Shown: one piece after another, positions 1-63,576 of the stretch
How positions within the stretch are numbered: position 1 is the stretch's first letter
How the letters are laid out: every line of letters starts with the position of its first letter
Assembly (NCBI GenBank): GCA_021787985.1
Contig: JAJYLG010000004.1
Span: forward strand, 22,869 to 86,868
Direction of reading: 5' to 3'
DNA: 64,000 nt
DNA from: Chloroflexota bacterium
Lineage (GTDB): Bacteria > Chloroflexota > Dehalococcoidia > DSGV01
Notes under the pieces: model-generated
Told to the model about the DNA's origin: nothing
Databases searched by the model: none
Seen by the model: the letters and a program-made list of their open reading frames with translations, nothing else
Made by a program: the position numbers and the translations under genes

Positions 1-1203
1 CTCCTTGAACAGGCCCACCGGACGCCCGGGCTGCACGCGGACGGCGATGTCGCCCTCCTCGCCCGGCTCGCAGCGTCCGCCGTCCTCGCGGATCACGGCC
101 ACCTCGAAGCCCGGCGATGGCTTGCCCATCGAGCCCGGCCTCACCTCCATGCCCGGGAAGTTCCCCACGAGCAGCACCGTCTCCGTCTGCCCGTAGCCGT
201 CCCGGATCGTCATGCCGGTCGCCTCGCGCCAGATGTCGATGACCTCGGGGTTGAGCGGCTCGCCCGCGCCGACGCAGCTTCGGAGCTCGGGGAAGCGGTA
301 CTGCTTCAGGTCCTCGAGCACCATCACGCGGTAGGCGGTCGGCGGCGCGCAGAAGCTGGTCACGCCCTCCTCCTCCAGCAGTCGCAACGTCAGCCGCGGG
401 TCGAACTTGCCGACGGCATCATGGATGAACAGCGCCGCGCCCTGCGACCATGGCCCGAAGAAGCAGCCCCACGCCGCTTTCGCCCAGCCGGTGTCCGACA
501 GCGTCCAGTGCAGGTCGTTCGGCCCCACCGCCAGCCACGCGCCGCCGGTGACGCGATGCCCGATGCCGTAGCTGGCGTGCGTGTGCACCACCATCTTCGG
601 GTAGCCCGTCGTGCCGGATGTGAAGTAGATCAGCATCGGCTCACTGGACGGGAACGGCTCGCTGGCGAAGACCGGCGCCTCGCGCGCGGCCTCATCGAGC
701 AGATTGACGGCTCCGGCCGGCGCGTCGCCGACGACGAACACTGTCTGCACCGTCTCGAGCTGACCGCGCACCTCGATCACCTTGTGCACGTTCTCCGCGT
801 CAGTGACGATCGCCTTCGCCTTCGCGCTGTTCGAACGGAAGACGAAGTCGCGGCCGGTCAGCAGCGTGGTCCCCGGCACCGCCACCGCGCCCAGTCGCAT
901 CAGCGCCAGCAACGTCTCCCACCATGCCGGGATGCGCGACAGCACCACCACCACGTTTTCGCCACGGCCGATCCCATGCCGTGCGAACACGTTGGCGATG
1001 CGCTTCGAGCCGTTCGCGAACTCGCGGAACGTGACCGTGCGGCGTTCGCCGTCGCGCCCACGCCACACCATGCCGACGCGGTTGCGCTCCTCGGCCCAGC
1101 GGTCGACAACGTTCGTGGCGAAGTTGAAGGTCGCCGGAACCTCCAGGTGGAAGGTCTGCAGCAGCCGGGTGTAGGGGTCCTCGTGCTCGGCCGTCGTTGC
1201 CAT
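1..1203 (-). CDS. AMP-dependent synthetase/ligase (acyl-CoA synthetase family). Start codon is at 1203; the C-terminus runs off the window edge
   Basis: Minus-strand translation begins MATTAEHEDPYTRLL and contains the AMP-binding signature IYFTSGTTGYPK and GYGQTE. It is absent from the ORF track because it runs off the edge. Confidence 0.8.
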   Translation of the reverse strand, partial: MATTAEHEDPYTRLLQTFHLEVPATFNFATNVVDRWAEERNRVGMVWRGRDGERRTVTFREFANGSKRIANVFARHGIGRGENVVVVLSRIPAWWETLLALMRLGAVAVPGTTLLTGRDFVFRSNSAKAKAIVTDAENVHKVIEVRGQLETVQTVFVVGDAPAGAVNLLDEAAREAPVFASEPFPSSEPMLIYFTSGTTGYPKMVVHTHASYGIGHRVTGGAWLAVGPNDLHWTLSDTGWAKAAWGCFFGPWSQGAALFIHDAVGKFDPRLTLRLLEEEGVTSFCAPPTAYRVMVLEDLKQYRFPELRSCVGAGEPLNPEVIDIWREATGMTIRDGYGQTETVLLVGNFPGMEVRPGSMGKPSPGFEVAVIREDGGRCEPGEEGDIAVRVQPGRPVGLFKE

Positions 1204-1325
1204 ACCATCTCCCCCCAACGTCTCTTGTGCTTCGGTTCCCCCATTATGCGGCCCTCATCCCGGCGGGGCGAGCGGACGCGCGGGCTGGCATGCGCCTCAG
1301 CGCCGCCCGGCCGTAGCATGGACCC

Positions 1326-2066
1326 ATGGGCACCACACCGGGGATCTACCTGGACCTCCAGTTCCCCGACCCGCCGCCGGGTCGCCCGTACGTCTACTGC
1401 AACATGGTCAGCTCGCTCGACGGCAAGGTCGTCGTCGACGGGACCGAGCGCGGCCTGGGCTCTTCAGCGGATCGGGGAGCCATGCGCGAGCTCCGGCTCC
1501 ATGCCGACGCCGTGATCAATGGCGCCGGCACACTCCGCGCCAGCGGCGCCTCGCCACGCCTGCCCGACGACCTGGCGGCCCTGCGGTTGGCGGCCGGTCG
1601 CACGCGCTATCCCCTGGCGGTGGTTGTCAGCGCCAGCGCCGACCTGCCGCTCGACCAGCCCTTCTTCCGTGATGGCTCGTTCCACGCGGCCGTGTTCGTC
1701 CGCGAGGACGCCCCCGCCGAGCGGCTCGGGCGCCTGCGCGCCACCGGGCGGCGGGTTGTCGCGCTCCCGGCGGAGGGATTCGTCGGCGCCGTCCTTGCCG
1801 CGCTACGGGGCGATTTCGGTGTCCGCCATCTGCTGTGCGAGGGCGGCCCACGGCTCAACCGCGCGTTGCTCGACGCGGGCGCGCTCGACGAGCTCTTCCT
1901 CACCCTGACGCCGAAGATCGTGGGCGGCGAGGGGCTCACCGCCGTCCATGGCGGTGGCCCCTACCCGCGCGCCGCACTCCCAAGGTTCGGCCTCGTCTCC
2001 GTCCGGCCGTGGCCCGAGACGGGCGAATGCTTCCTGCGCTACCGGTATGAACGACGAGACGGCTGA
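1326..2066 (+). CDS. RibD C-terminal domain / dihydrofolate-reductase-like reductase family protein
   Basis: 246 aa. Contains VSSLDGK...GG.LN..L..VDEL.L..P...GG, typical of the bacterial bifunctional deaminase-reductase C-terminal domain. Confidence 0.7.
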   Translation: MGTTPGIYLDLQFPDPPPGRPYVYCNMVSSLDGKVVVDGTERGLGSSADRGAMRELRLHADAVINGAGTLRASGASPRLPDDLAALRLAAGRTRYPLAVVVSASADLPLDQPFFRDGSFHAAVFVREDAPAERLGRLRATGRRVVALPAEGFVGAVLAALRGDFGVRHLLCEGGPRLNRALLDAGALDELFLTLTPKIVGGEGLTAVHGGGPYPRAALPRFGLVSVRPWPETGECFLRYRYERRDG

Positions 2067-2379
2067 ACGCCCGCTGCCGGCGCTGGAGACGGCGCACGCT
2101 CCCCGCGCCGCCATCGCTCGGCTGGAGAAGGGCGGCAGGCTGCGCCTTCCCGAGGAGATGCTGCGCCGCTACGGGCTCCGCCCGGGCCAGCCCGTCGCCG
2201 TCCAGGAGCGGGGCGACGGGCTGCGCGTTGTGGCGCTCGACGTGCTGCTGGCGGAGATGTGGGGCGGCACCGCCGGCTATCTCGCCGAGCGGGACATCAC
2301 CACCGGCGACCTGATCGAGGCGGCCCGCACCGCACGCCGCGACTGCTACCGCGACGTCTTCCTGGCGCGAGATGGCTGA
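2047..2379 (+). CDS. AbrB/MazE (SpoVT_AbrB) family antitoxin, VapB-like
   Basis: Internal ATG at 2047 in ORF 1948..2379. Swapped-hairpin-like segment RLRLPEEMLRRYGLRPGQPVAVQERGDGLRVV. Its stop overlaps the start of the downstream PIN gene (ATGGCTGA). Confidence 0.55.
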   Translation: MNDETAERPLPALETAHAPRAAIARLEKGGRLRLPEEMLRRYGLRPGQPVAVQERGDGLRVVALDVLLAEMWGGTAGYLAERDITTGDLIEAARTARRDCYRDVFLARDG

Positions 2380-2791
2380 GCCGCGTGTCTTTATCGACAG
2401 CAGCGTCCTGCTTGCGGCGTTCGCCGGCGACGCGCAGGCGCAGCGCGTCGTGCTGGCGGCGGCGCGCGGCCGCATCCGCGCGGTCGTCAGCGACTGGGTG
2501 GCCGAGGAGGTGACACGGGCGTTGGCCCGTCGCGCGCCGGCCATCGCGCCGACCGTCTCGCTCGTCCTCGACGCGCTCCAAGCGGACGAGGTCATCGTCC
2601 CGACGGACGAGGAGGCGGCGGACTACATCGGCGGCGAGCCGATCGACGGGCCGATGATCGCTGCCGCCGAGGAGGGCGACGCCCGCTATCTGGTCACGTG
2701 CGACCCGGCGCTGCTGGACCGGCGGCAGGCGATCGCGAAGCGCCACGTTCAGGCGCTCACCCCGGCCGAGGCCGCCGCCCGCTGGCGCTAG
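2372..2791 (+). CDS. PIN-domain ribonuclease toxin, VapC-like
   Basis: 139 aa. N-terminal VFIDSSVLLAAF with conserved acidic residues. Overlaps the upstream antitoxin by 8 nt. Confidence 0.7.
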   Translation: MAEPRVFIDSSVLLAAFAGDAQAQRVVLAAARGRIRAVVSDWVAEEVTRALARRAPAIAPTVSLVLDALQADEVIVPTDEEAADYIGGEPIDGPMIAAAEEGDARYLVTCDPALLDRRQAIAKRHVQALTPAEAAARWR

Positions 2792-2823
2792 CCAGCCGCC
2801 CCGGCACGCCTGCCGCCGTGTGG

Positions 2824-3666
2824 TCACCCGAGCTCGAGCGGCAGCCGAGGGTGCGACCGTCCGTCTGGCCGGAAGCCCGCGAACACCCGAACGTCCGGGT
2901 AGCCCAGGCGTCTGAGGGCCAGAAAGGCGACCGCCGCGTGCGTCCAATGACTTCCGTACAGGACAACGGTCTTGTCCGGGGTCACGCCCCGCCCCAGGAA
3001 CATCGCCTGGGCCGTGGCCGCCGGTACCATGGCTCCGGTCGCCGCCAGCAGCTCACCCCAATACAGCCAAGCGGCCAGCGGCAGGTGGCCGGCCCGCCAT
3101 CCCGGCGCCGGCATGTCGAACCCGCGGAACTCGGGCTCCGTCCGCACGTCCAGCAGGACCGCGGACTCGAATCGGTCCAGGACGTCCATCACTTCATCGG
3201 CGGTCGCGACGACCGGCGTCCTCGACGCGGAGGTCGCGTCGCTGCCCGGGCCCGCGAGGTGATCGCCGCTCGCCGCCCTCGTCGCGGGTTCGTTTCGCTT
3301 CAACGCCGTGAAGCCGCCGTCCAGCACGCACACGTTCCGCACGCCCGCGGCGCACAACGCCAGGTAGCAGCCGGCGCTCACGGGGTCCGTCGTGTTTCCG
3401 CAGAGCACGATCCGACGGCCCTGCAGCGGCTGGAGCGCAGCGCCGAGCGCCTCCCACGCCCGCATGTCCACGCCAAGCCGCCCCGGCTGGCTCAGCGCGC
3501 GCCGCAGGAGCCGCCACGGCACGCCGTGCGCCGCCGCCGGCCGCATCAGCCTGCGCTGCTCCGGCGCTCGCACATCGACCAGGACCGCCTTCCCCTGCGC
3601 GGCCAGCTCGTGGCAGCGATCGGGGGCGATCAACGCGGACCGCGTGTCTTCAGCCGTCGTCTGCAC
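2824..3666 (-). CDS. Rhodanese-domain protein (two rhodanese-like domains)
   Basis: VLLDVRTEPEFRG...GH.PLA and VLVDVRAPEQ...CGNTTDPVS rhodanese motifs. Probable GTG start at 3666, overlapping the upstream gene's stop by 1 nt. The ORF-track start at 3738 would overlap the upstream gene by 72 nt. Confidence 0.65.
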   Translation of the reverse strand: MQTTAEDTRSALIAPDRCHELAAQGKAVLVDVRAPEQRRLMRPAAAHGVPWRLLRRALSQPGRLGVDMRAWEALGAALQPLQGRRIVLCGNTTDPVSAGCYLALCAAGVRNVCVLDGGFTALKRNEPATRAASGDHLAGPGSDATSASRTPVVATADEVMDVLDRFESAVLLDVRTEPEFRGFDMPAPGWRAGHLPLAAWLYWGELLAATGAMVPAATAQAMFLGRGVTPDKTVVLYGSHWTHAAVAFLALRRLGYPDVRVFAGFRPDGRSHPRLPLELG

Positions 3667-4517
3667 TAGCTCACCTCGAGCGGGAAGTCGTCTGGAAGCC
3701 TCGTCCACTCGTACATCGACCCGAGGTACACGCGACACGGGTAGCCGAGCTCTCGGAGGACGAGGTACGTGTTGCTGGCCCGGTGACTTCGCTGGCAGTA
3801 CACGATGGTCTCGCGCCCACGGGACACGCCGAGCTCGCCGAGCATCGCCTCGAGCTCCTGCCGCGGCCGTAGACGACGTTCGTCGGTCAGGAAATCAACC
3901 CAGTGGGTCCACGCAACCCCGGGCAGATGGCCGACGCGCGGGTTCCCCTGCAGACGCACCCAGCCGCGGAACTCCGCCTCGCTGCGGACGTCCAGCACCG
4001 TGACTCCCGCTCCGTCGACGAGCAAGCTGCGCAGCTCGGAGGCAGAGCAGACCATCTCCTGCCGCGGGGCAGGGCGCCACGCCGGTCCACGGGCGTGCGT
4101 CGCTTCGCCGCGACCGCGGGCCACCGGGCCGCCCGCCTCCACCCAATCAGGGAACCCTCCGTGCAGCACATACGCCCGCGGGTGTCCCAGGTAGCGGAGG
4201 ATGAAGAGCCCGCGCGGCGCGCGGTTGCTCAAACCCTTGTCGTACAGCACGACGGTGGTGTCCGGCGTGACGCCGACGGCGGCGTAGAGCGCCGCCCACT
4301 GCCGCCGCACCGCACCCAAGCTCCGCGGGTCCGTCCCGCCGATCAGGCGCAGGAAGGTCGGCAGGTGTACGGCGCCGGGGATGTGACCCGCCTCGTACTC
4401 GGCGCGAGGGCGCTCGTCGATGACCAGCGCCGGCTCGGCGGCGAGCCGCTGCCGCAGCCAGCCGGCGCTCACGAGCCAGGAATCGCGGCCGAGGTCATCC
4501 GAACTCGAGCTAGGCAT
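3666..4517 (-). CDS. sseA: 3-mercaptopyruvate/thiosulfate sulfurtransferase (SseA-like, tandem rhodanese)
   Basis: Internal start MPSSSSDDLGRDSWLVSAGWL at 4517. Two rhodanese domains with catalytic CQRSHRAS. The first 150 aa of the listed ORF are Arg/Gly-rich junk. Confidence 0.75.
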   Translation of the reverse strand: MPSSSSDDLGRDSWLVSAGWLRQRLAAEPALVIDERPRAEYEAGHIPGAVHLPTFLRLIGGTDPRSLGAVRRQWAALYAAVGVTPDTTVVLYDKGLSNRAPRGLFILRYLGHPRAYVLHGGFPDWVEAGGPVARGRGEATHARGPAWRPAPRQEMVCSASELRSLLVDGAGVTVLDVRSEAEFRGWVRLQGNPRVGHLPGVAWTHWVDFLTDERRLRPRQELEAMLGELGVSRGRETIVYCQRSHRASNTYLVLRELGYPCRVYLGSMYEWTRLPDDFPLEVS

Positions 4518-5006: not shown

Positions 5007-6704
5007 CTAGGTCCTGTACGCATCGACCAGGTACTCCTGCCCCATCGTGAATATCCAGCTCATATGCACGTTCGCCTGGTGTATGTGATAGCTGATGTCG
5101 AGCACATGCGGGACGTTGTACATCCGGTCAGCCATGATGTCTACGACGTTCTTCACGTCTTCCGTCCGCTTCCGTGGATCGAGCTCCCGCCGCTGCTTCT
5201 CGATCGCCGCCAGCAGCTCCGCGTCGTCAGACAGGAGCGGCCCGAGGCCGGGAGCGAGCAGCCGTGGGCTGCCCGGGGCCCACAGCACGGCGAAGTACAC
5301 GTCTGGGTCCGCCGCGACGAGATTGGCGCCGATCGCGAATCCGCCCTTCCACTTCCCGCCCGTCACCACCGTCGAGTAGAACTCGGCGAACGGCAGCGAC
5401 TTGAGATTGGTGGTCACGCCCACCGCCTTCAGCTCCTGCTGCGTCAGCTCAGCATCCTGCAACTGGCCCGGCGTCCACACGTTCGACGCGAGGAAGTCAT
5501 AGGGCCCGATCTTGTCCGCGCCGGCCGCGCTGAGCAGCGCCTTGGCCTCGCCCGGGTTGTGAGCGTAGTACTTGGCGTTCGGGAAGGCACCCTTCGTTGG
5601 GTCGAAGTAGAATTCGTTCAGCACGCCATACGGCAGGCACCACATCCCCTGGCCGTAGGGCCTGATGAGATCGTCCCGATTCAAGCTCATCGACAACGCC
5701 TGCCGCACGCGCTTGTCCTGGAACACACGCTCGTTGAGGTCGAAGCCGAGCCAGTTGTTCCCTTGCCTCGGATAGGGCAGGAACGTTCCGCCCGGCAGCG
5801 CGCCTTTCAGCGATGAAACGTCATTGGCGCCGACCACTCCCGTCCACCCCAGGGAGTCGAGATCCTTGGTTCTCAACGCCGACATCGTCGTCGACGGATC
5901 CGGCACGATCTTGTAGAGCACCCGGTCGAGGTAGGGCCGGTCGGGGATGAAGTAGCTCGGGTTGCGCTCGAAGGCCACCTGTGCTCCCACCTGATACCCG
6001 CGGAAGAGAAACGGGCCCGCGCTCCACATGTCCTTCTTCAACTGATCTCCGTCGAACAGCTCCGGCGGCTGAATGCAGAACATGTTCGGCGCGGTCAAGT
6101 GGTTCAGGAACGGCCCGAGCGGCTTCGACAGCGTGAATCTCACCGTCTGGTCGTCCACGGCCTCGACCTTGTTCACGTCCTTCAGCAGGAGCCGGTTGAC
6201 GCTCGCGGTTCGGAAGCGCTCCCAGTTCTGCAGGACGTCATGGGCGGTGACTGCGCGCCCATTGAGCGGCGCCTTCTCCTCCCATCGTGCCTTGCGCAGC
6301 TTGAAGACATAGGTCGTCGTATCCGGCTGCTCCGGCATCGCCGCGGCCAGGTCGGGCACGCTCCGGTAGTCGATCGGGCCGATCCCGGGGCCGGTGGCGT
6401 ACTTCAGCAGGCGCGGGTACACCATCGCGGCGTACATGACCGAGCGATAGTTCGGCGTCTTCATGTAGTCGAAGCTCGGCGGATCGCCGTCGTCGTGGAG
6501 GGTCAGCGTGCCACCCTTGACCGGCGCAGCCGTAGCCGATGTTGCGGCGGTCCCGGTTGACTCCGGCGCAGCCGGCTTGCTCTTGCCGCCGCACCCGGCC
6601 ACGAAGCCGGCCGCGCCCAGTCCCGTGACGGCGACCCCTCCCAGGAAGACCCGCCTCCGGATCCTGCGCGCAGCGTATCGCTCCCAGTAGGACGTCTCTG
6701 GCAT
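5007..6704 (-). CDS. ABC transporter substrate-binding protein, family 5 (peptide/nickel type), Tat/lipoprotein signal
   Basis: Start MPETSYWERYAARRIRRRVFLGGVAVTGLGAAGFVAGC gives a twin-arginine motif plus a lipobox. The rest is an SBP_bac_5-like body of about 560 aa. Confidence 0.8.
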   Translation of the reverse strand: MPETSYWERYAARRIRRRVFLGGVAVTGLGAAGFVAGCGGKSKPAAPESTGTAATSATAAPVKGGTLTLHDDGDPPSFDYMKTPNYRSVMYAAMVYPRLLKYATGPGIGPIDYRSVPDLAAAMPEQPDTTTYVFKLRKARWEEKAPLNGRAVTAHDVLQNWERFRTASVNRLLLKDVNKVEAVDDQTVRFTLSKPLGPFLNHLTAPNMFCIQPPELFDGDQLKKDMWSAGPFLFRGYQVGAQVAFERNPSYFIPDRPYLDRVLYKIVPDPSTTMSALRTKDLDSLGWTGVVGANDVSSLKGALPGGTFLPYPRQGNNWLGFDLNERVFQDKRVRQALSMSLNRDDLIRPYGQGMWCLPYGVLNEFYFDPTKGAFPNAKYYAHNPGEAKALLSAAGADKIGPYDFLASNVWTPGQLQDAELTQQELKAVGVTTNLKSLPFAEFYSTVVTGGKWKGGFAIGANLVAADPDVYFAVLWAPGSPRLLAPGLGPLLSDDAELLAAIEKQRRELDPRKRTEDVKNVVDIMADRMYNVPHVLDISYHIHQANVHMSWIFTMGQEYLVDAYRT

Positions 6705-9148: not shown

Positions 9149-10336
9149 CTAGCTCTGGCGTCGCGGCAGCAGGGCGAGGCCCGCGCCCGCCAGCGCGAGC
9201 GCCGCGCCGGCGAGCAGAAGCAAGGCGCGCGACGAGCCGCCCCCAGCCGGCCCCGTGCCCGTCCCCGGCGCCTTGATGATCCCGAGCACCTCGGACACGC
9301 CGGTTGCCGTGCTCGTGGGGGTGGAGGTCGGCGTGGCGGTGGGCGTCGCCGTTGGCGTGAGCGTGGGCGTGCCCGTGGGGGTGGAGGTCGGCGTGGCGGT
9401 GGGCGTCGCCGTTGGCGTCAGCGTGGGCGTGCCCGTGGGGGTGGAGGTCGGCGTGGCGGTGGGCGTCTCCGTGGGCGTTGGCGTCAGCGTGGGCGTGCCC
9501 GTGGGGGTGGAGGTCGGCGTGGCAGTAGGCGTCGCCGTTGGCGTGAGCGTGGGCGTGCCGGTCGGTGTGCCGGTCGGTGTGCCCGTCGGCGTGGCGGTAG
9601 GCGTCTCCGTTGGTGTTGGCGTGAGCGTGGGCGTGCCGGTCGGTGTGCCCGTCGGCGTGGCGGTAGGAGTCTCCGTGGGCGTCGGCGTGAGCGTGGGCGT
9701 GCCGGTCGGTGTGCCCGTCGGCGTGGCGGTGGGCGTCTCCGTGGGCGTTGGCGTGAGCGTGGGCGTGCCGGTCGGTGTGCCCGTCGGCGTGGCGGTGGGC
9801 GTCTCCGTGGGCGTCGGCGTTGGCGTCGGAGTCGCGCAATCCACCCACACGTTGGCCTTCGCCTGGGTATGCAGCAACTCGTACTGGTTGTCTTGCGGCC
9901 CGTCCAGGTAGGCCGTGTTGAATGGGTCGTTGCAACCGGGCGTACCGGGAGCCTCGTTCACGGTGGCGGTCACGGTGAGCTCGCGAGTCTCGCCGGGGCC
10001 GAGGTCGAAGGTCTTGAAGCAGAACCACAGGCCGCTGCCCAACGGCTCGCACCACGAGCTGCCGCCCGGGGCGCTTCCGTTGTCATCCGAGGCAGTCACC
10101 GTGTACGGCGGGGACGAAGGGATATCGGCAACGGTCAGGCCGCCGGCGTCCGCGCCGCCCGTGTTCGACACGACGATGGTGAACGTCACCGAGCCACCGT
10201 TGCTGACGTAGATGGGGCTCGCCTTCTTGGTGATGTCCAGGACTGCTCCCGAAGGGTCCGCTGAGAGAAAGGGCGCGCGCGCGCTCAGGACGCCGGTGCT
10301 CAGCCACACCGTCGCGAGCGTGAGCACACTGAGCAT
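9149..10336 (-). CDS. Secreted DUF11 (conserved repeat domain) protein with a long Thr-Pro repeat linker and a C-terminal AP-G-TG-T-GP + TM + RR anchor
   Basis: Signal peptide [24 protein letters not shown]11-like segment [24 protein letters not shown]. About 180 aa of TPTxTPTGTP repeats. C-terminus [43 protein letters not shown]. Confidence 0.7.
9290..9830. repeat. Tandem repeat, about 8 units of 60-66 bp, encoding [22 protein letters not shown]-type linker units
   Basis: Directly visible periodicity in the DNA (ggcgtgagcgtgggcgtgcc...). The antisense frame gives the PVGV-repeat ORF 9255..9911. Confidence 0.85.
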
Positions 10337-10927
10337 CAGCCCGCGCCGCCATCCGCGCCCGGTCACGTTCGCGCCTTTCCGGTCGGTGTGGCCATGCGGT
10401 CTCCCCGCGGAGTGGGGGGGCGGGACGCGCCCCTCACCTCCCTGGGGCCACGCTGAGCCCTCGCTCGGTGACACTTCAATGGCGGTGGTGGCACGTTCCG
10501 GTTAGGATCCCGCGAAGAGCGAGCAAGGGACTGGTGACAAGATCGTTACTTCGGTGACGTCCACGTCACCGGATCACGTCGCTCGTTCCCGAGCGGGGAG
10601 CGCGTGGCTCGGGGCGGGGCGACGGCGTGAGCGCGGTCCCGGCCGCGGTCGGTTTTCTTGTCGCGCTCAATACCCGGAAATTTCCCCCGGTAAGGCGACA
10701 GAAGAGGGTTGTCGGGCCACACGTGGCATGTGCTACGCTCGCCCACGTCCAGCGAACCCTTTCCCCCTGCGGACCGGCGGACGGCGCCGGCGCTCAACGG
10801 GACGGCAACCCGCGAAGGCTCGCACGATGCATCGCGCGCGAGCTGGGGGTCGTCGCGCCCTGGGCGCGCGCACGCTCGCCAGCCGCCCAACGCGGGTTTG
10901 GCTCGTACGGGCCTGGAGGCACGGGAC

Positions 10928-12313
10928 ATGCAAAGTTCGGCGCCCGATCGCGTCTGGCAGGCAATCCTGCACCATCTGCGAACGCTGGTCACCGGCCCGG
11001 TCTACCAGACCTGGTTCGATGGCACGGTGGGCATCGCCATCGAGGGCAACCTGCTCACCGTCAACACGCCCAACGACTTCGTCACCGAGTACCTGCGCTC
11101 GCGCCTCGCGGGCGTCGTCGGGCGCGCGGTCGCGGATGTGGCAGGCGCGGACGTGCGCGTCTCCTACCGCTCTGGGACGGTGATCTCCGAGCCGCCGCCG
11201 CCCCCCCTCACCCCACCGCCGGGAGCACCGTCGGCGGCTTCCGCGCCCCTTTTCTCTCACCCGGTGCGGGCGCCGAAGCCGATGCTGCGCCCCGAGTACA
11301 CTTTCGATCGCCTCGTCGTCGGGCGCTGCAACCAGGTCGCGCACTCCGCCGCCGTCGCCGTCGCCGCCGACCCCGGCCGGGTCTATAATCCGCTCTTCTT
11401 CTTCGGCCCCACCGGTGTGGGCAAGAGCCACCTGCTGACCGCGATCGGTCACGAAACCCTCGACCTCGGCCAGCACGTCGCCTTCGTCACCTGCGACCAG
11501 TTCATCAACGAGTTCGTCACCGCGCTGCGCGAGCGCCGCGCCGACGAGTTCCGCCAGCGCTATCGCGCCGCAGACGTCTTCCTGCTCGACGACGTGCACC
11601 AGCTCCAGGGCAAGGAGCAGACGATCGAGGAGTTCTTCAACCTGTTCAACGACCTCCACGCCGCCGGCACCCAGATCGTGCTCACCAGCGACCGCGCGCC
11701 GCGCAGCCTGGGGCTGATCGAGCCGCGCCTGCGCAGCCGCTTCGAGTGGGGGCTGCTCGCCGACGTGTCCGTCCCCGACCTCGAGACCCGCCAGGCGATT
11801 GTCCGGCGCAAGGCCGAAGAGCGGCAGATCGACCTCCCGGTGGAGGTGCTCGACTTCATCGCCCAGCGGTCGGCGGAAAGCGTGCGCGAGCTGGAAGGCA
11901 ACCTGAACCGTGTCATCATGTTCCTCAAGGTCCAGAACAAGCCCACCAGCGTGGCGCTCGCCGCCGAGGCGCTGCGTAGCATAGACGCGCGTCCTGCCGG
12001 GCGCCCGCCGGTTCCCGAGGCGATCGTCGAGGCGGTCTGCGCGTTCTACGGCGTCCGCGAGGCGGAGCTGACGGGCAAGGGCCGCACCGCCCGCGTCGTC
12101 CGCGCCCGCCACGTGGCGATGTTCCTGATGCACCACGACGCCGGCCGCGCGCTCACCGAGATCGGACGCGCCTTGGGCGGCCGCGACCACTCCACGGTCC
12201 TGCACGCGTCCACGAAGATCACCGCGCAGCTCGAGCGCGATGCCGACCTCTGCCGCGAGGTGGAGGAGCTGCGTGCCGTGCTGCAGCGGCGGGAGCGCCG
12301 CGCGGCGGGCTAG
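10928..12313 (+). CDS. dnaA: Chromosomal replication initiator protein DnaA
   Basis: Start MQSSAPDRVWQAILHHLRTL. Walker A GPTGVGKSHLL. AAA+ sensor motifs. C-terminal DNA-binding domain HVAMFLMH...GGRDHSTVLHA. Confidence 0.9.
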   Translation: MQSSAPDRVWQAILHHLRTLVTGPVYQTWFDGTVGIAIEGNLLTVNTPNDFVTEYLRSRLAGVVGRAVADVAGADVRVSYRSGTVISEPPPPPLTPPPGAPSAASAPLFSHPVRAPKPMLRPEYTFDRLVVGRCNQVAHSAAVAVAADPGRVYNPLFFFGPTGVGKSHLLTAIGHETLDLGQHVAFVTCDQFINEFVTALRERRADEFRQRYRAADVFLLDDVHQLQGKEQTIEEFFNLFNDLHAAGTQIVLTSDRAPRSLGLIEPRLRSRFEWGLLADVSVPDLETRQAIVRRKAEERQIDLPVEVLDFIAQRSAESVRELEGNLNRVIMFLKVQNKPTSVALAAEALRSIDARPAGRPPVPEAIVEAVCAFYGVREAELTGKGRTARVVRARHVAMFLMHHDAGRALTEIGRALGGRDHSTVLHASTKITAQLERDADLCREVEELRAVLQRRERRAAG

Positions 12314-18000: not shown

Positions 18001-18095
18001 ACACGGCGTCAAGACCGGCCGAACGCGCGCCCGGACGTGTCTAACCCTCCGCGAGCGTGGCACTCTAGAAACACAGGGAGCAGGAGGTGCGGGTG

Positions 18096-20012
18096 ATGGC
18101 CCAGCGATACGCCCGACTTACCCGGCCGCTTGTCCGCGAGGGCGGAGCGCTGCGCACGGCAACCTGGGATGAGGCGCTCGACCGGGCAGCGGCCGGATTC
18201 CGGGACGCCGTCGCGCGAAGCGGCCCGCGGAGCTTCGGCCTGTTTAGCTGCTCGAAGGCCACCAACGAGATCAACTTCATCGCCCAGAAGTTCGCGCGTG
18301 CCGTCATCGGCAGCAACAACATCGATAGCTGCAATCGCACCTGACACGCGCCGAGCGTCGTCGGTCTGGCGACGGTATTCGGCGCGGGCGGCGGCACCAG
18401 CTCCTACCGTGAGGTCGAGGAGACCGACCTGATCGTGCTCTGGGGCTCGAACGCTCGCGAGACCCACCCGATCTTCTTCCACCACGTGCTCCGCGGATTG
18501 CGCAACGGGGCCCGCTTGTACGCGGTGGACCCGCGCCGCACCACCTCCGCACAGTGGGCGCACGCCTGGCTGGGGCTCCAGGTCGGCTCCGACATCGCCC
18601 TGGCCAACGCCATCGGCCGCGAGATCATCGCCGCGGGCCTCGCCAACGAGACGTTCATCGCCCGCGCTACCGCCGGTTTCGACGAGTACCGCCGCTGCGT
18701 CGACCGCTACACCCTCGACTACGCCCAGCGCGAGACGGGCGTGCCGGCGGAGACGATCCGCGAGCTGGCGCACGCCTACGCCCGCGCCGACCGGGCGATG
18801 ATCTGCTGGACGCTGGGCGTGACGGAGCACCACAACGCGGTGGACACCGTGCTGGCGATCATCGACCTGGCGTTGCTGACCGGCCACGTCGGCCGCTACG
18901 GCTCCGGACTCAACCCGTTGCGGGGACAGAACAACGTCCAGGGCGGCGGTGATATGGGCGCGCTGCCCGATCGGCTGCCGGGCTTCCAGCACGTCGAGGA
19001 CGACGCCGCGCGCGCGAAGTTCGAGCGCGCCTGGGGCGTCCGCATCCCGCCGAAGCGGGGCTGGCACCTCACCGGCATGTTCGAGGCGATGGAGCGGGGC
19101 GATCTCACCGCGCTCTACGTCATCGGCGAGAACCCCGCTCAGTCCGAAGCCGACGCCGGCCGGGCCGTGCGGCTCCTGGGCGGTCTCGGGCACCTGGTCG
19201 TGCAGGACATCTTCCTGACGCCCACCGCCGAGCTGGCGCACGTCGTGCTCCCGGCGGCCGCGAGCTGGTGCGAATGCGAGGGCACCGTCACCAGCAGCGA
19301 GCGTCGCGTGCAGCGCGTGCGCAAGGCGCTGGAGCCGCCGGGCGAGGCCCGCGACGACATCACGATCATCCGCGACCTGGCCCGCCGCTTCGGCCACAAC
19401 TGGGGCTCGCCCAGCGCCGAGGACGTCTGGAACGAGCTGCGCAGCCTGAGCCCGATCCACGCCGGCATGAGCTACCGCCGCCTCGAGGCACTGGGCGGGC
19501 TCCAGTGGCCCTGCCACGACGAGACCCACCCTGGTGAGCAGTTCCTCCACGGCCGCCTCTGGGAGGAGCCGCTGCGCGGCCCGCGGACGCCCTTCCACGC
19601 TGTCCTGCACGAGCCGCCCGTGGACCCGGTCGACGACGAGTTCCCGATCCGCCTCACCACCGGCAGGCAGCTCGATTCGTTCAACACCGGCGTCCAGAGC
19701 GGGCTCTACCGCTCGCCGTTGCGCCACGGAGAGACGCTCCAGATCTCGCCGGACGACGGCCGCCGCTACGGCGCCCTCGACGGCGAGCGCGTGCGCGTGC
19801 GCTCACGCCGCGGCGCGGTGGAAGTGTCGGTCCACTACGAAGGCACCCTGCGCCCCGGCCTCGCGTTCATGACGCTTCACTTCCCGGACGAGGTGGCGAC
19901 GAACCTGCTGACGATCGACGCCGCCGACCCGAGGTCCGGCACGGCCGAGTTCAAGGCCACTGCCATCCGCATCGAGAAGATCGCGACGTCGACGGACGGC
20001 GCGGAGGGCTGA
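18096..20012 (+). CDS. fdhA: Formate dehydrogenase catalytic (molybdopterin bis-MGD) subunit, selenocysteine-containing. In-frame TGA at 18342-18344 is read as Sec. The N-terminal Fe-S domains are encoded separately (see 21823..22779)
   Basis: ATG at 18096 with AGGAGG 8 nt upstream. ...FIAQKFARAVIGSNNIDSCNRT-TGA-HAPSVVGL aligns with the E. coli FdhF ...CARV-U-HGPSVAGL. Downstream motif GQNNVQGGGDMGALP contains the conserved Arg. ORFs 18087..18344 and 18435..20012 are the same frame joined through the UGA. Confidence 0.8.
18345..18388 (+). promoter_or_regulatory. SECIS-like recoding hairpin immediately 3' of the UGA codon
   Basis: Outer stem cgcgccga (18347-18354) pairs with tcggcgcg (18379-18386). 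Inner stem cgtcg pairs with cgacg. Apical loop ucGGUCugg contains the GGUC element expected of bacterial SECIS loops. Confidence 0.5.
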
Positions 20013-39922: not shown

Positions 39923-40918
39923 ATGATGCCCACCGTGGACGTCTTGACGGAAGGCAGAGCGGCCAGCGCGAGGCGCACGCTGCGCGCTACGTTCGTGGTG
40001 AACCCGAACGCGCGTGGCGTGCCCTCGCCCGAGCGCCTGATGCTGGCTCCCGCCTGGCTGCGGGTCGCCGGCTGGCAGACGGCCGTCGAATACACGCGCG
40101 GGCCGGGCCACGCCACGGAGCTTGCGCGGGCGGCCGCCGCCGCTGGCGTGGGCGTGGTGGTGGCGGTCGGCGGCGACGGCACGGTGAACGAGGTGGTCAA
40201 CGGGCTGGTCGGGACGGACACCGCGCTGGCCGTGCTGCCCTGCGGCACCGCCAACGTGTGGGCGCGCGAGATCGGCATGCCGCATGCGCCCGACCGTGCG
40301 GCGGCGGCCATCCACCGCGGCTGGCTGCGACGCGTCGACACCGGACGCGTCGGATCGCGGCACTTCCTGCTGATGGCCTCACTCGGGCTCGACAGCCAGG
40401 TCGCGGCGCTGGTCGAGCCGCTGCGTAAGCGACGCTGGGGCGCGCTGGCATACGCCGGCCGCGGGCTCCGGGAGGCGATCGCGTACACCTCGCACCGGGC
40501 GATGGTCTGGCTCGACGGCCAGCGGCTCGACTGCAACCTCATGGTGATGGTGGTCGGCAACACGCGCAGCTACGGCGGCGTGCTGCAGGTCACGAACGAG
40601 GCGCGGGTCGACGATGGGCTGCTGGACGTGGTGGTCTACAACGGCAGCGGGGTGAACCGCTTGCTGCGCCATCTGGCGCGTACGCTGCTCGGCCGGCACG
40701 CCAACACCGGGGAATCCGTCTACACGCAGGCGCGCGAGATCCGCGTGGAGCTGCCGCGGCCGCTGCCGGTGCAGGCGGACGGCGACGTGGTCGGCAGCAC
40801 GCCGGTGGAGATCATCTGCGCGCCGGGGTCGCTCTGGGCCGTGGTGCCGCGCACCTATCGCGGGCCGCTCTTCCGCCGGCAGCTCGCGGCCACGCTCGAG
40901 CCGGTGGCACGCCGCTAG
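39923..40918 (+). CDS. Diacylglycerol kinase catalytic-domain family lipid kinase (YegS/DagK-like)
   Basis: Start MMPTVDV at 39923. Motifs VVAVGGDGTVNEVVNGL and LPCGTAN. Confidence 0.8.
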   Translation: MMPTVDVLTEGRAASARRTLRATFVVNPNARGVPSPERLMLAPAWLRVAGWQTAVEYTRGPGHATELARAAAAAGVGVVVAVGGDGTVNEVVNGLVGTDTALAVLPCGTANVWAREIGMPHAPDRAAAAIHRGWLRRVDTGRVGSRHFLLMASLGLDSQVAALVEPLRKRRWGALAYAGRGLREAIAYTSHRAMVWLDGQRLDCNLMVMVVGNTRSYGGVLQVTNEARVDDGLLDVVVYNGSGVNRLLRHLARTLLGRHANTGESVYTQAREIRVELPRPLPVQADGDVVGSTPVEIICAPGSLWAVVPRTYRGPLFRRQLAATLEPVARR

Positions 40919-42558
40919 CTTCCGCCGGGCGCGCCAGCCACCGATCGGGGCTGGGAAACCGCGGCGGCCGGCGCGCACGAGCGCAGCCGTGCGCCGATCG
41001 CCCAGATCAGCAGCAGGTTGAGGACGGCGATTGCGCCCAGGCCGATGTTGAGCAGGAGCTCGAGCTGGACGTCGCTCAGTCCATGGGTGGGCGCCAGGAC
41101 GCGCTGGCCCACCAGCACGCTGGCGCCGTTCCAGGCGCCATGCAACGCCCAAGCCGCCAGGAATAGCGGCGGCAAGCGCCACCAGCGCCCCCGCGACGCC
41201 CCGTACCAGCCGAGCGCCACCAACCCGGTCGCCAGGCAGTGCAGCGTGGTCGAGCCCGCGCGCACCAACGCGCCGCTCCACCACTGGTTCGCTCCCCCGT
41301 GAACGGCAAGCGCCACGTAGCCCACACCTTCGAACGCCGCGAAGCCCGCGCCGACAAGCACGCCGATGCCGAACGCGTCTCGCGCCGAGGCGCAGGCGCG
41401 CACGGCGATCGGGTAGCCGAATCCCTTCGTGAGCTCCTCGACGAACGGCCCGATCAGGGCGTAGATGAGCAGCGTGTTGCCCGTGACCTCGCGCTGGGTC
41501 AGGTAGCGATCGATGTGCTCGAAAAGGCCTCGGTATCCGGGCCCGTTCGTCACCAGGGCGAACGCGTGCGTGCGGGAGAGGGCCAGGGCGAAGACGGCGA
41601 ACTCCGCGGCGATCTCGATCATGGCGGCGGCGAAGGTCGCGCAGACGGCGCCCCAGGCCCAGGCCGTCCACATCTGGCGCCAGGTCAGCGGTCCTCGCTC
41701 GCGATGCCAGCGGAGGCCCACGAAAGCCAGGCCGGCGAAGGCGAGGCCCGGCAGCAGACCCGCCGGCACGGTCAGCGCGGCCAGCGCGCCGCCCTGCATG
41801 CGGGCGCTCCGCGCAGCGGCCGCTCCAACCGCGACGACGGCCGTGGCCACCAGGACCCACGGCCAGAAGCGCGGCAGGTTGGCGCGGCCGGACAGCGAGC
41901 CCGTCACCGCCGACGCGGCGTGATAGAGGAGCGCGCTGCCCGCCATGGCGAGGATCACGGCGGTCCCGACCTGGGCAATCACGGGCGCCGCAACCGGGTA
42001 GTGGCGCCGCGTCTCGCGCAGCGCCTGGTACACGACGGCCGGCAGCGAGGCGACGAGGCCGGTCGCGAGCAGCAGGAGCAGCGTGGCGTAGATGGCAGCC
42101 CCCACCGCGACGCCCTTGGAAGTGGGTCGGCCGCCGCGACGCAGCAGCGTCAGCGCCAGCCAGGTGAGCAGAGCAAGCGCGACGACGATCGCGGCCGCGC
42201 CGCCGATGGCAGCGACGGCCCGCATCCGCGATGGGTCGAGGCCCTGCGGTCGCACCTGGCCCAGCCCCGGGGCGGCGGCCAGGGTGGCGATGCCGACCGG
42301 CAGCAGCACGAGCCCGGCGACCGCCCAGCAAGCGCGCGCCAGACCAGGCGCAGCCCAGCCGAGCGCCAGGCCGGCAAACCCCAATACCACCACGCCGACG
42401 CCGCCCGGCCAAACCGCCACCGCCGTGCTCCCGGGCGCGCGTGTGGCATCCCACATCAGCTCGCCGACGAGCAGCGCCCAGCCGCCGACGAAGGCGTGCA
42501 GCGCAGCCGTCGCGGCCCACGCCCGACCGGCCGTCCACGGGCGCGACGCCGTGATCAC
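40915..42558 (-). CDS. Polytopic membrane protein with C-terminal PrsW-family protease domain
   Basis: GTG at 42558 overlaps the recF stop (GTGA). About 12 TM segments. PrsW-type motifs IGPFVEELTKGFGY, HCLATG and HGAWNG. The 1039-aa ORF-track call (40915..44034) overlaps recF and was rejected. Confidence 0.65.
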   Translation of the reverse strand: MITASRPWTAGRAWAATAALHAFVGGWALLVGELMWDATRAPGSTAVAVWPGGVGVVVLGFAGLALGWAAPGLARACWAVAGLVLLPVGIATLAAAPGLGQVRPQGLDPSRMRAVAAIGGAAAIVVALALLTWLALTLLRRGGRPTSKGVAVGAAIYATLLLLLATGLVASLPAVVYQALRETRRHYPVAAPVIAQVGTAVILAMAGSALLYHAASAVTGSLSGRANLPRFWPWVLVATAVVAVGAAAARSARMQGGALAALTVPAGLLPGLAFAGLAFVGLRWHRERGPLTWRQMWTAWAWGAVCATFAAAMIEIAAEFAVFALALSRTHAFALVTNGPGYRGLFEHIDRYLTQREVTGNTLLIYALIGPFVEELTKGFGYPIAVRACASARDAFGIGVLVGAGFAAFEGVGYVALAVHGGANQWWSGALVRAGSTTLHCLATGLVALGWYGASRGRWWRLPPLFLAAWALHGAWNGASVLVGQRVLAPTHGLSDVQLELLLNIGLGAIAVLNLLLIWAIGARLRSCAPAAAVSQPRSVAGAPGGS

Positions 42559-62188: not shown

Positions 62189-63576
62189 TCAGCAGAACCA
62201 GGGCTCGCTGAGCCCCGGCGCCACCTCCCGCGGCTGAGGAAGAACCGCCATCAGCCCGTCGCCCGCTCCGAGGGCGCGCAGCGCCGCGCGCTTCACCTCG
62301 GCGAACGTCCGCGCCGGGTCGGGCATGGTGCCGTCCTCGCGGCGCCGTGCGCCCGCCTCGACGATGGCGGTGACCTCGGCTCGCAAGGGCCGGGTGCGCG
62401 GGTCGAGGTCGGGCCAGGTCCAGGTGAGGCCGGCGGGGTCAAAGGGGCCGAGGCGTCCCTCGGCCCGAAGCAGCGCGGCCAGCGGGGACCCGGGAGGCAC
62501 GAGCAGCCGCAGCGCGTACTGCACCGGCTGCACGTTGCGGACGAGCCCGTGCTGCTCGACAAACCGCAGAAGCTCGGCGAAGTCCTCCGCCGCGCTCCAC
62601 GGCGTGAACGGCACCCAGGTCGGACGCAGGGCCAACCCGGCTTGTCGCACGAGCACGACGGCCCGCTCCAGGTCGGCCCTCGTGTGTCCCTTGTCCAGCC
62701 GCTCGAGCACCGCGTCGTTGCACGACTCAAAGGCCGACGTGACGAACAGGCAACCGAGCTCGCGCAGGCGCGGCAGGGCGGCCGCGTGCTCGATCAGGTG
62801 CTCGACTTTGACCGTGACGTCGAACGTCACGCCTGGATGGTGAGCGTGGGCCGCTTCCAGGACGGCCAGCGAGTGCGGCACGGCGTTGAAGAAGTCGGCG
62901 TCGCCGAAGGTGATGTGGCGCGCGCCCATGCGCACGAGCTGGGCGATGTCGGCGAGCACGGTCTCCCGCTCCACCAGCCGCAGGCGGCCGCCGTAGACGG
63001 GCGTGAGGGGGCAGTGGCGGCAGCGGTGCGCGCAGCCCCGCGGGTCGCCTCGACGTACCCGGCCGGGACGGGCTCACCGCCGGATAGGAGGTGGGCGTAG
63101 CGCTGCAGCGGCGGGAGTCCCGCGCGGTCCGGCACCGGGTAACGCCGCCGGTCGAAGCGGGGCGTGGCGCCGACTCCCGCGGGCGGGCACGCCGGGTCGA
63201 ACCGGTCGGCGGCGAGCGCGTCGGCCAGGGCGACCAACCCCGCTTCGTACTCGCCGCCGACGATCGAGTCGGCCACGCCGTCGCCAACGAGCAGATCGTG
63301 CAGCGGCGCCGCGTAGAGGCCGTAGAAGCAGATGTGTGCGCGCGGCGCCAGCCTCCGGGCGCGGCGCGCCAGCTCGATGCCGAGCCGGGCGGCCGTGTGC
63401 ATCGGGACCGAGACGCCGAGCAGGTCCGCCTTGCCGAAGATTCCCGCGTCCAGCGGCTCGACGGAGAGGTCGAAGCAGCGCACCTCGTGCCCGGCGGCAC
63501 GGAGCGCCGCGGCGGGCGCGGCCAGCCCCAGCGGCTGGTGCCCGAGCTCGTACGTGGAGACCAGCAGGACACGCAT
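62189..63576 (-). pseudogene. B12-binding radical SAM protein interrupted by an apparent 1-nt frameshift in a C4 run (63036-63039). Either a pseudogene or a homopolymer sequencing error
   Basis: The N-terminal B12-binding domain (MRVLLVSTYELGHQPLGLAAPAAALRAAGHEV...) ends at ...GYVEATRG. Inserting one G (minus-strand sense) restores ...TRGGCAHRCRHCPLTPVYGGRLRLVERETVLADIAQLVRMGARHITFGD, i.e. the CxxxCxxC radical SAM motif, continuous with ORF 62189..62974. Confidence 0.6.

Follow-up and report, generated by a model that had tools for sequence, protein, structure and literature searches.

Two surface-protein genes and their C-terminal tails

The window, meaning the whole 64-kb stretch of DNA analysed here (~ 70% GC throughout), encodes two surface proteins with a shared type of C-terminal tail. 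The gene of the first protein is located at 9149..10474 (-), and its longest open reading frame (ORF) in the ORF list comprises 441 aa. The true start is likely the GTG at 10366, which would give a product of 405 aa with a classical signal peptide. A single DUF11 domain was detected (Pfam, E 3.7e-9, residues 79-177), followed by Thr/Pro-rich tandem repeats at 9308..9834 (-), which were delineated with Tandem Repeats Finder and by translation (66-nt period, ~ 8 copies, 22-aa unit). Judging from known sortase substrates, these repeats probably act as an extended wall-spanning spacer upstream of the sorting signal. The tail of the protein comprises the sorting motif, which begins I-K-A-P (9248..9277 (-)), a spacer AGGGSSR (9227..9247 (-)), a hydrophobic helix of 20 residues (9167..9226 (-)), and a basic end PRRQS (9152..9166 (-)) before the stop codon (9149..9151 (-)). 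Searches of the protein collection with any of four start codons did not recover the DUF11 protein, and a word-index homologue search with its DUF11 N-domain gave no match.

The second gene, at 52236..53282 (+), encodes a cupredoxin of 348 aa that is 100% identical to a public protein (P0001). Its longest ORF spans 52077..53282 (+), while the start called in the public data is 52236. The protein matches the Pfam families Cupredoxin_1 (E 2.4e-11) and Copper-bind (E 1.4e-9), with the domain at about 52332..52589 (+), and consists of a signal peptide (MHRFFRTFGLPVAVLAAVAAALGGG...ARA), the cupredoxin domain, a Pro/Thr/Ser linker, and a C-terminal domain without an assigned family. NCBI names such proteins only as 'cupredoxin domain-containing protein'. 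The C-terminal end reads ...GTVTAPNTGHGPSSAGAEWWWLAIAGAAIVVGGTGTLVLARRRAR, and the tail is made up of the sorting motif V-T-A-P-N-T-G-H-G-P (53151..53180 (+)), a spacer SSAGAE (53181..53198 (+)), a hydrophobic helix of 22 residues, WWWLAIAGAAIVVGGTGTLVLA (53199..53264 (+)), and a basic end RRRAR (53265..53279 (+)), followed by the stop codon (53280..53282 (+)). For both tails the positions were read from the sequence, together with the motif table for the motifs and the geometry table for the helices.

Common to the two tails are AP[GN]TG[TH]GP, a Gly/Ser spacer of 6-7 residues, a hydrophobic helix of 20-22 residues, and a basic end. A Val or Ile is additionally found two residues before the Ala in both cases (I-K-A-P and V-T-A-P). 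N-terminal Sec signal peptides were recognized on both proteins by inspection, from the starts at 10366 and 52236. The GC content at the third codon position was 0.94 for each tail and ranged from 0.88 to 0.91 across the genes (0.88 for the DUF11 gene), which makes the reading frames of the tails credible. When a loose regular expression was applied to the 703 six-frame ORFs of the window, it returned both tails and otherwise one spurious ORF of 67 aa. Coordinates, sequence and this search all agree with an earlier, sequence-only reading of the window, which had described the two ORFs and their tails. The DUF11 and cupredoxin domains also bear out its view that two unrelated, secreted proteins possess a common C-terminal module, which has three parts and is built like that of a sortase substrate.

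Many of the tail helices collected in this work, including those of the window (9152-9226 and 53199-53264), start with Trp, and 'AG[AT]G' or 'GGTG' recurs near their C-terminal end. These sequence features suggest that recognition may involve the helix as well. Tails derived from the profile search described below are biased towards the 'AG[AT]G'/'GGTG' feature, and those from the DNA scan show only part of it.

The window is matched by a 73.6-kb ENA contig (ERZ27233565 k141_1518207), a Logan assembly (SRR13170411), and a 93.6-kb NCBI contig. About a dozen single-base differences and one indel separate it from the ENA copy. A gene for a B12-binding radical SAM protein (62189-63574 (-)) is intact in the ENA copy (461 aa), whereas the window copy has a shifted frame in its N-terminal part and runs into a stop. 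The frame break points to an indel difference and represents either a strain pseudogene or an assembly error.

The DUF11 gene is arranged head-to-head with dnaA (10694-12310 (+)). The E. coli DnaA box TTATCCACA, with one mismatch allowed, was not found in the spacer between them (10475-10693) and occurs twice in the whole window, which is the level expected by chance; the GC skew of the window gave no clear origin signal. Among the listed matches to GTDB species representatives, the best relatives of the neighboring CoaBC are from Chloroflexota metagenome-assembled genomes (MAGs; 53-58% identity), and the matches listed in the CoaBC genome scan included neither a close relative nor a genome with synteny for the DUF11 gene. 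Further downstream, an in-frame TGA (18342-18344 (+)) joins two ORFs of a molybdopterin oxidoreductase (18069-20009, Molybdopterin and Molydop_binding domains), with genes for a NuoF-like and an Fe-S subunit downstream. The context of the TGA, N-R-T-[TGA]-H-A-P-S, resembles the selenocysteine site of formate dehydrogenase (R-V-U-H-G-P-S in E. coli FdhF), and the sequence suggests that the oxidoreductase is probably a selenoprotein.

Recurrence of the tail outside the window

Many other proteins were found to carry the tail; the sequence-only reading would have taken a lack of such proteins, together with the lack of a sortase-like gene in the genome, as a sign of coincidence. A HMMER profile constructed from three tails was searched against 1.84 billion representative proteins (E <= 1e-3). 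The eight matches comprised one repeat artefact, a protein already included in the query profile (P0066), and six C-terminal tails. These six were found on a beta-helix protein (P0211, AAPNTGTGP), a small Ser/Thr-rich protein (P0213, TGPNTGTGP), a double cupredoxin (P0214, SAPNTGNGP), and three further proteins (P0210, PPETGTGP; P0212, AVPDTGTGD; P0215, LPQTG). A three-tail alignment used in a genome scan gave 112 matching stretches; as a query it was too short for any of them to pass tblastn.

JGI metagenome contigs were also scanned at the DNA level with only P-N-T-G-T-G-P fixed and the flanks unconstrained. This yielded 120 stretches, nine of which had the heptapeptide 31-40 residues before a stop together with a spacer, a helix and basic residues. 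Neither the Ala nor the Val/Ile position was specified in the scan, and both proved enriched: Ala directly preceded the Pro in 6/9 tails compared to 8/97 other PNTGTGP matches (Fisher p = 1.2e-4), and a Val or Ile stood two residues upstream of the Ala position in 7/9 compared to 7/97 (p = 4.5e-6).

A total of 17 tails were collected, which are not fully independent because several belong to related double cupredoxins. Within this set the P, T, G and G are invariant and the final Pro is present in all but one tail (16/17). Ala occupies position 1 in 12 tails, including both window proteins (Leu in one), and the upstream Val/Ile is found in 13 of the 16 tails that have a residue at that position. 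The geometry is also conserved: the Gly lies 35-44 residues from the C-terminus, the motif is followed by 31-40 residues, and 6-12 residues separate motif and helix. The consensus is [VI]-x-A-P-N-T-G-T-G-P. The pentapeptide xPxTG with Ala at position 1, as first proposed from the sequence, is indeed present, but it is incomplete, as the conserved unit is [VI]-x-A-P-x-T-G-x-G-P.

The proteins that carry the tail include the DUF11 protein, single and double cupredoxins, a Big_1/invasin-like (Ig-like) protein, a right-handed beta-helix protein, a protein with a weak beta-propeller match, small Ser/Thr-rich proteins, and proteins without Pfam domains. When unrelated secreted proteins have a short C-terminal module in common, this is the hallmark of a sorting signal. 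The excess of cupredoxins among the carriers of the tail suggests copper electron carriers exposed at the cell surface. On one contig (L166), two adjacent genes both encode tailed proteins (APNTGTGP and APSTGTGP), i.e. a double cupredoxin at 1179-2492 (+) and a 578-aa protein with a weak beta-propeller match at 2371-4104 (+). The APxTGxGP tail is portable between unrelated proteins, and its conservation extends to residues on which the searches placed no condition.

A second contig (L147) carries a double cupredoxin gene (5240-6496 (+)) syntenic with that of L166. Downstream of the double cupredoxin, both contigs have a homologous large gene on the opposite strand, the products of which share the end ...QNAYIRRLQHQMAQRYNL.SRSQGREPYRRV. 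PNTGTGP was also observed inside large proteins in the conserved context ...R.DDP..PNTGTGP....DRGA.E[FY]... (L095, L098, L105, L106, L114, L115, L118, L131, L156, L162 and L201-L203), where it represents a distinct motif unrelated to the C-terminal tails.

All contigs with the tail have a GC content of 0.67-0.73, and the only named relatives are MAGs assigned to Chloroflexota or 'Dehalococcoidia bacterium'. The module is accordingly lineage-restricted, as had been proposed. The double cupredoxin of L166 falls in the same 90%-identity cluster as MHB8377634.1, 'MAG: cupredoxin domain-containing protein [Dehalococcoidia bacterium]', and the named relatives of the cupredoxin belong to Dehalococcoidia, Limnocylindria or Chloroflexota.

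Homologues of the window cupredoxin show how the tail varies. Relatives sharing its C-terminal domain carry TPATG or VPPTG ahead of a terminal helix and basic residues, and other Chloroflexota-like homologues have APNTG (P0038, P0058 and P0066, the last as TAPNTGTGP), APATG or PPATG. More distant cupredoxins carry canonical LPKTG, LPNTG, LPSTG or LPVTG in the same tail layout, and JGI annotates several of them as 'LPXTG-motif cell wall-anchored protein'. These endings indicate that the xPxTG core is kept in the same layout while position 1 varies with lineage.

Two other types of ending were observed. In six cupredoxin homologues (P0019, P0035, P0045, P0047, P0048 and P0057), the tail consists of 'DLGSGPGP' or 'GPGPGP', a helix, and YRRR or LRRR, without xPxTG; one member of this group is named Candidatus Limnocylindria. 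From its sequence, this ending may be another lineage-specific C-terminal signal on the cupredoxin family. Small Thr/Pro/Ala-rich proteins are encoded beside CoaBC in Anaerolineales MAGs (L026, 11353-11979 (-); L030, 4050-4652 (-)), and end ALPDSGFADNIGAPGLL...ARRLRA and ALPQSGFAEDIGATGLL...ARRLRA, respectively. By sequence these are LPxSG-type tails, another Chloroflexota variant.

Candidate anchoring mechanism and alternatives

The APxTGxGP tail recurs on many unrelated proteins of uncultured, high-GC Chloroflexota, which makes a lineage-specific version of the LPXTG cell-wall anchor its most likely identity. Both window proteins would be exported by the Sec pathway via their N-terminal signal peptides, after which the C-terminal helix and arginine tail would keep them in the membrane. 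This would place [VI]-x-A-P-x-T-G-x-G-P just outside the membrane, where it could be recognized by a dedicated enzyme; the most likely candidate is a cysteine transpeptidase of the sortase family whose gene lies in another part of the genome. Such an enzyme would cut between Thr and Gly and link the carboxyl group of the Thr to peptidoglycan, and the wall of a single-membrane Chloroflexota cell would thereby display both the cupredoxin and the DUF11 protein. We lean towards this sequence of export, helix retention, sortase cleavage and wall display. Peptidoglycan, the acceptor, is to be expected in the group, because a tail-bearing contig from a relative carries ddl-ftsQ-ftsA-ftsZ. If the wall-anchoring signal is genuine, it would add evidence for a single-membrane, peptidoglycan-bearing envelope in these Chloroflexota.

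Several observations favor a sortase. The invariant residues are those of sortase signals, and the 6-12 residues between motif and helix are as in sortase signals and unlike exosortase-type signals. Moreover, the homologues described above carry genuine LPXTG in the same layout, and the tails have affinity only for sorting-signal models, almost all of the sortase/xxxTG kind. Against a sortase are the Ala instead of Leu at position 1 and the scores of the window tails, which fall below every curated cut-off. To our knowledge, the upstream Val/Ile and the downstream G-P are not features of known sortase signals.

The 64-kb window contains no sortase (PF04203) detectable with a TLxTC regular expression, with phmmer searches using three sortases, or with Pfam (large ORFs with high third-position GC at 1-42.5 kb and a precomputed Pfam list for 42-63 kb), and no exosortase-like or rhombosortase-like gene was found in it with Pfam. 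A 7.5-kb extension of the contig past the window's right end, and related loci totalling about 2 Mb, likewise yielded neither a sortase nor an exosortase. Precomputed Pfam lists gave no sortase around five other tail-bearing genes, and the contexts of P0088, P0211, P0212, P0213 and P0214, together with the right end of the source contig, showed no sortase and no recurrent neighbor. Homologues retrieved with a class E sortase profile all came from Streptomyces, and a tblastn search of a sortase against plasmids gave no Chloroflexota record. The missing sortase is weak evidence, as the loci examined cover little of any single genome. With none found in the window or the related loci, we infer the sortase mechanism and, with it, the class of the enzyme, the site of cleavage and the link to the wall. 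Of the originally suggested sortase or exosortase-like anchoring system, the sorting signal is upheld, while the window, its extension and the fetched loci yielded no sorting enzyme.

The only membrane protease in the window is a PrsW-family protein (40918..42558 (-), 547 aa), which is polytopic with 10 or more predicted helices and has its protease domain in the C-terminal half. It was set aside as the processing enzyme, being encoded 10 kb from the cupredoxin and absent from the other contexts.

It is possible, although doubtful, that the Chloroflexota have a sorting system of their own, in which the 10-residue [VI]-x-A-P-N-T-G-T-G-P together with the helix would be read by either a natural APXTG sortase or an enzyme family new to sorting. 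As far as we know, APXTG specificity has so far been found only in laboratory-evolved sortases used to ligate histone H3 tails.

Alternatively, a true sorting signal could be read by an enzyme other than a sortase, such as an exosortase/archaeosortase-like or rhombosortase-like protein or an undescribed membrane protease or transpeptidase of this Chloroflexota group, with the 10-residue motif, and perhaps the helix, as the recognition element. The conserved unit is longer than any sortase pentapeptide, with Val/Ile upstream and G-P downstream, and 'AG[AT]G' recurs near the end of many helices. In addition, the closest curated model, GVDTG-CTERM, lacks the Pro and is not named as sortase-dependent, and no sortase was found in the window or related loci. 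The extra conserved residues and the labelling of GVDTG-CTERM keep such an enzyme a serious rival. However, the motifs of exosortase, archaeosortase and rhombosortase substrates abut the helix, whereas a spacer of 6-12 residues is found here; of their models, PEP-CTERM, PGF-CTERM and GlyGly-CTERM gave no match, and MYXO-CTERM and VPEID-CTERM only marginal ones (E 0.077-0.16). The window encodes no such enzyme, its PrsW-family gene being 10 kb away and without recurrent linkage, and the LPXTG-bearing homologues with the same layout also argue for a sortase. Overall, we consider a non-sortase enzyme unlikely.

Similarly, the helix could anchor the proteins without being cleaved, in which case APxTGxGP would be a structural hinge or a modification site, e.g. 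for O-glycosylation of the Thr. Abundant Thr, Pro and Gly make the region similar to glycosylated linkers, genes for PMT_2 and GT87 glycosyltransferases are present on these contigs, and a processing enzyme was looked for and none identified. The invariant P, T, G and G, the conserved flanks and the fixed distance to the C-terminus nevertheless fit recognition by an enzyme and not a flexible linker. Canonical LPXTG in homologue tails of the same layout likewise makes an uncleaved anchor improbable. A coincidence of two low-complexity tails, conceivable for sequences rich in Gly, Ala, Pro and Thr in a 70% GC genome, is hardly credible, since the motif recurs in no fewer than 15 additional tails of unrelated proteins and residues unused in the searches show enrichment (p = 1e-4 and p = 4e-6); chance resemblance is refuted by this flanking-residue enrichment in the DNA scan and by the motif and geometry tables.

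Comparison with known sorting signals

Our preferred reading, a sortase-type signal, was compared with the curated models. None of the NCBIfam or Pfam sorting-signal models accepts either window protein. LPXTG_anchor (TIGR01167) matched neither full protein nor the DUF11 tail, and the isolated cupredoxin tail scored 15.3 bits against a cut-off of 15.9; Gram_pos_anchor (PF00746) did not match the window proteins. The tail of P0214 reached 19.1 bits on LPXTG_anchor, through the helix and the basic part only and not the pentapeptide. The best-matching curated model was GVDTG-CTERM (NF058571), with 7/16 tails at E <= 1 and scores of 14.8-16.8 bits for the window tails and 14-21.1 bits for related tails compared to a cut-off of 29. 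The models strep_LAETG, Microco_LAVTG and LAXTG_small_WW gave 13-21 bits against cut-offs of 27-65. Only sorting-signal models showed any affinity, nearly all of them of the sortase/xxxTG kind. No match at all was obtained with PEP-CTERM, PGF-CTERM and GlyGly-CTERM, and the matches of MYXO-CTERM (E 0.077) and VPEID-CTERM of the exosortase E system (E 0.15-0.16) were marginal. The window proteins are therefore not members of any curated family, and their proposed surface anchoring, along with the extracellular location of copper electron carriers in this poorly known phylum, is invisible to current annotation pipelines. The APxTGxGP motif could seed a new curated model.

Compared to L-P-x-T-G, position 1 is Ala in both window proteins, with P, T and G present. 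In LAXTG, Ala follows Leu at position 2, which here is an invariant Pro. Unlike exosortase, archaeosortase and rhombosortase substrates, motif and helix are separated by 6-12 residues, and no matching model or polytopic enzyme was found. The motif is thus not the textbook one, as the sequence-only reading had noted from the Ala at position 1, and the sub-threshold scores of the window proteins agree with this.

The similarity to LPXTG sortase substrates extends to the signal peptide, the invariant Pro, Thr and Gly, the short spacer, the helix of ~ 20 residues, and the basic C-terminus, as well as to the portability between unrelated surface proteins and the Pro/Thr-rich spacer before the signal. 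The tail differs in the Ala for Leu at position 1, in the extra Val/Ile two residues upstream and x-G-P after the Gly, and in its host, which belongs to Chloroflexota and not to Bacillota or Actinomycetota. Pilins carry YPxTG, IPxTG and VPxTG. An xPxTG signal with a small non-Leu residue at position 1 is also known from Clostridium difficile, in which SrtB, a lineage-specific sortase, recognizes (S/P)PXTG (PMC4155245, PMC5118464). Those substrates have Ser or Pro instead of Ala, lack the G-P extension and the upstream Val/Ile, and belong to a class B sortase of a low-GC Gram-positive bacterium.

The tails also resemble the class E LAXTG signals of Actinomycetota, a housekeeping type of anchor signal, in coming from a high-GC organism and in having a similar helix and Arg tail, which accounts for the sub-threshold matches. 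The class E signals keep the Leu and have Ala at position 2, whereas the window tails keep the Pro and have Ala at position 1. With GVDTG-CTERM, the T-G is aligned and the spacer, helix and basic end are in register. The motif of that model, G-V-D-T-G, lacks the Pro, and NCBIfam does not label it as sortase-dependent.

In the literature searched, the papers that mention APXTG together with sortase all concern peptide ligation and protein chemistry, among them reviews of engineered sortases, and there was nothing on sortase signals or LPXTG in Chloroflexi/Chloroflexota classes and nothing relevant on GVDTG. The A-P-x-T-G pentapeptide of the window tails is shared with the substrate of the laboratory-evolved Staphylococcus aureus sortase A variants F40 and cW11, which accept APXTG (PMC8248031, PMC11638967). 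A sortase, if that is what reads the tails, would provide a natural ligase specific for APXTG, a specificity that has so far been evolved artificially (PMC8248031, PMC11638967). Taken together, the APxTGxGP tail is real and represents a variant, so far missing from annotation, of a type of signal that is already known; it does not amount to a new kind of system.
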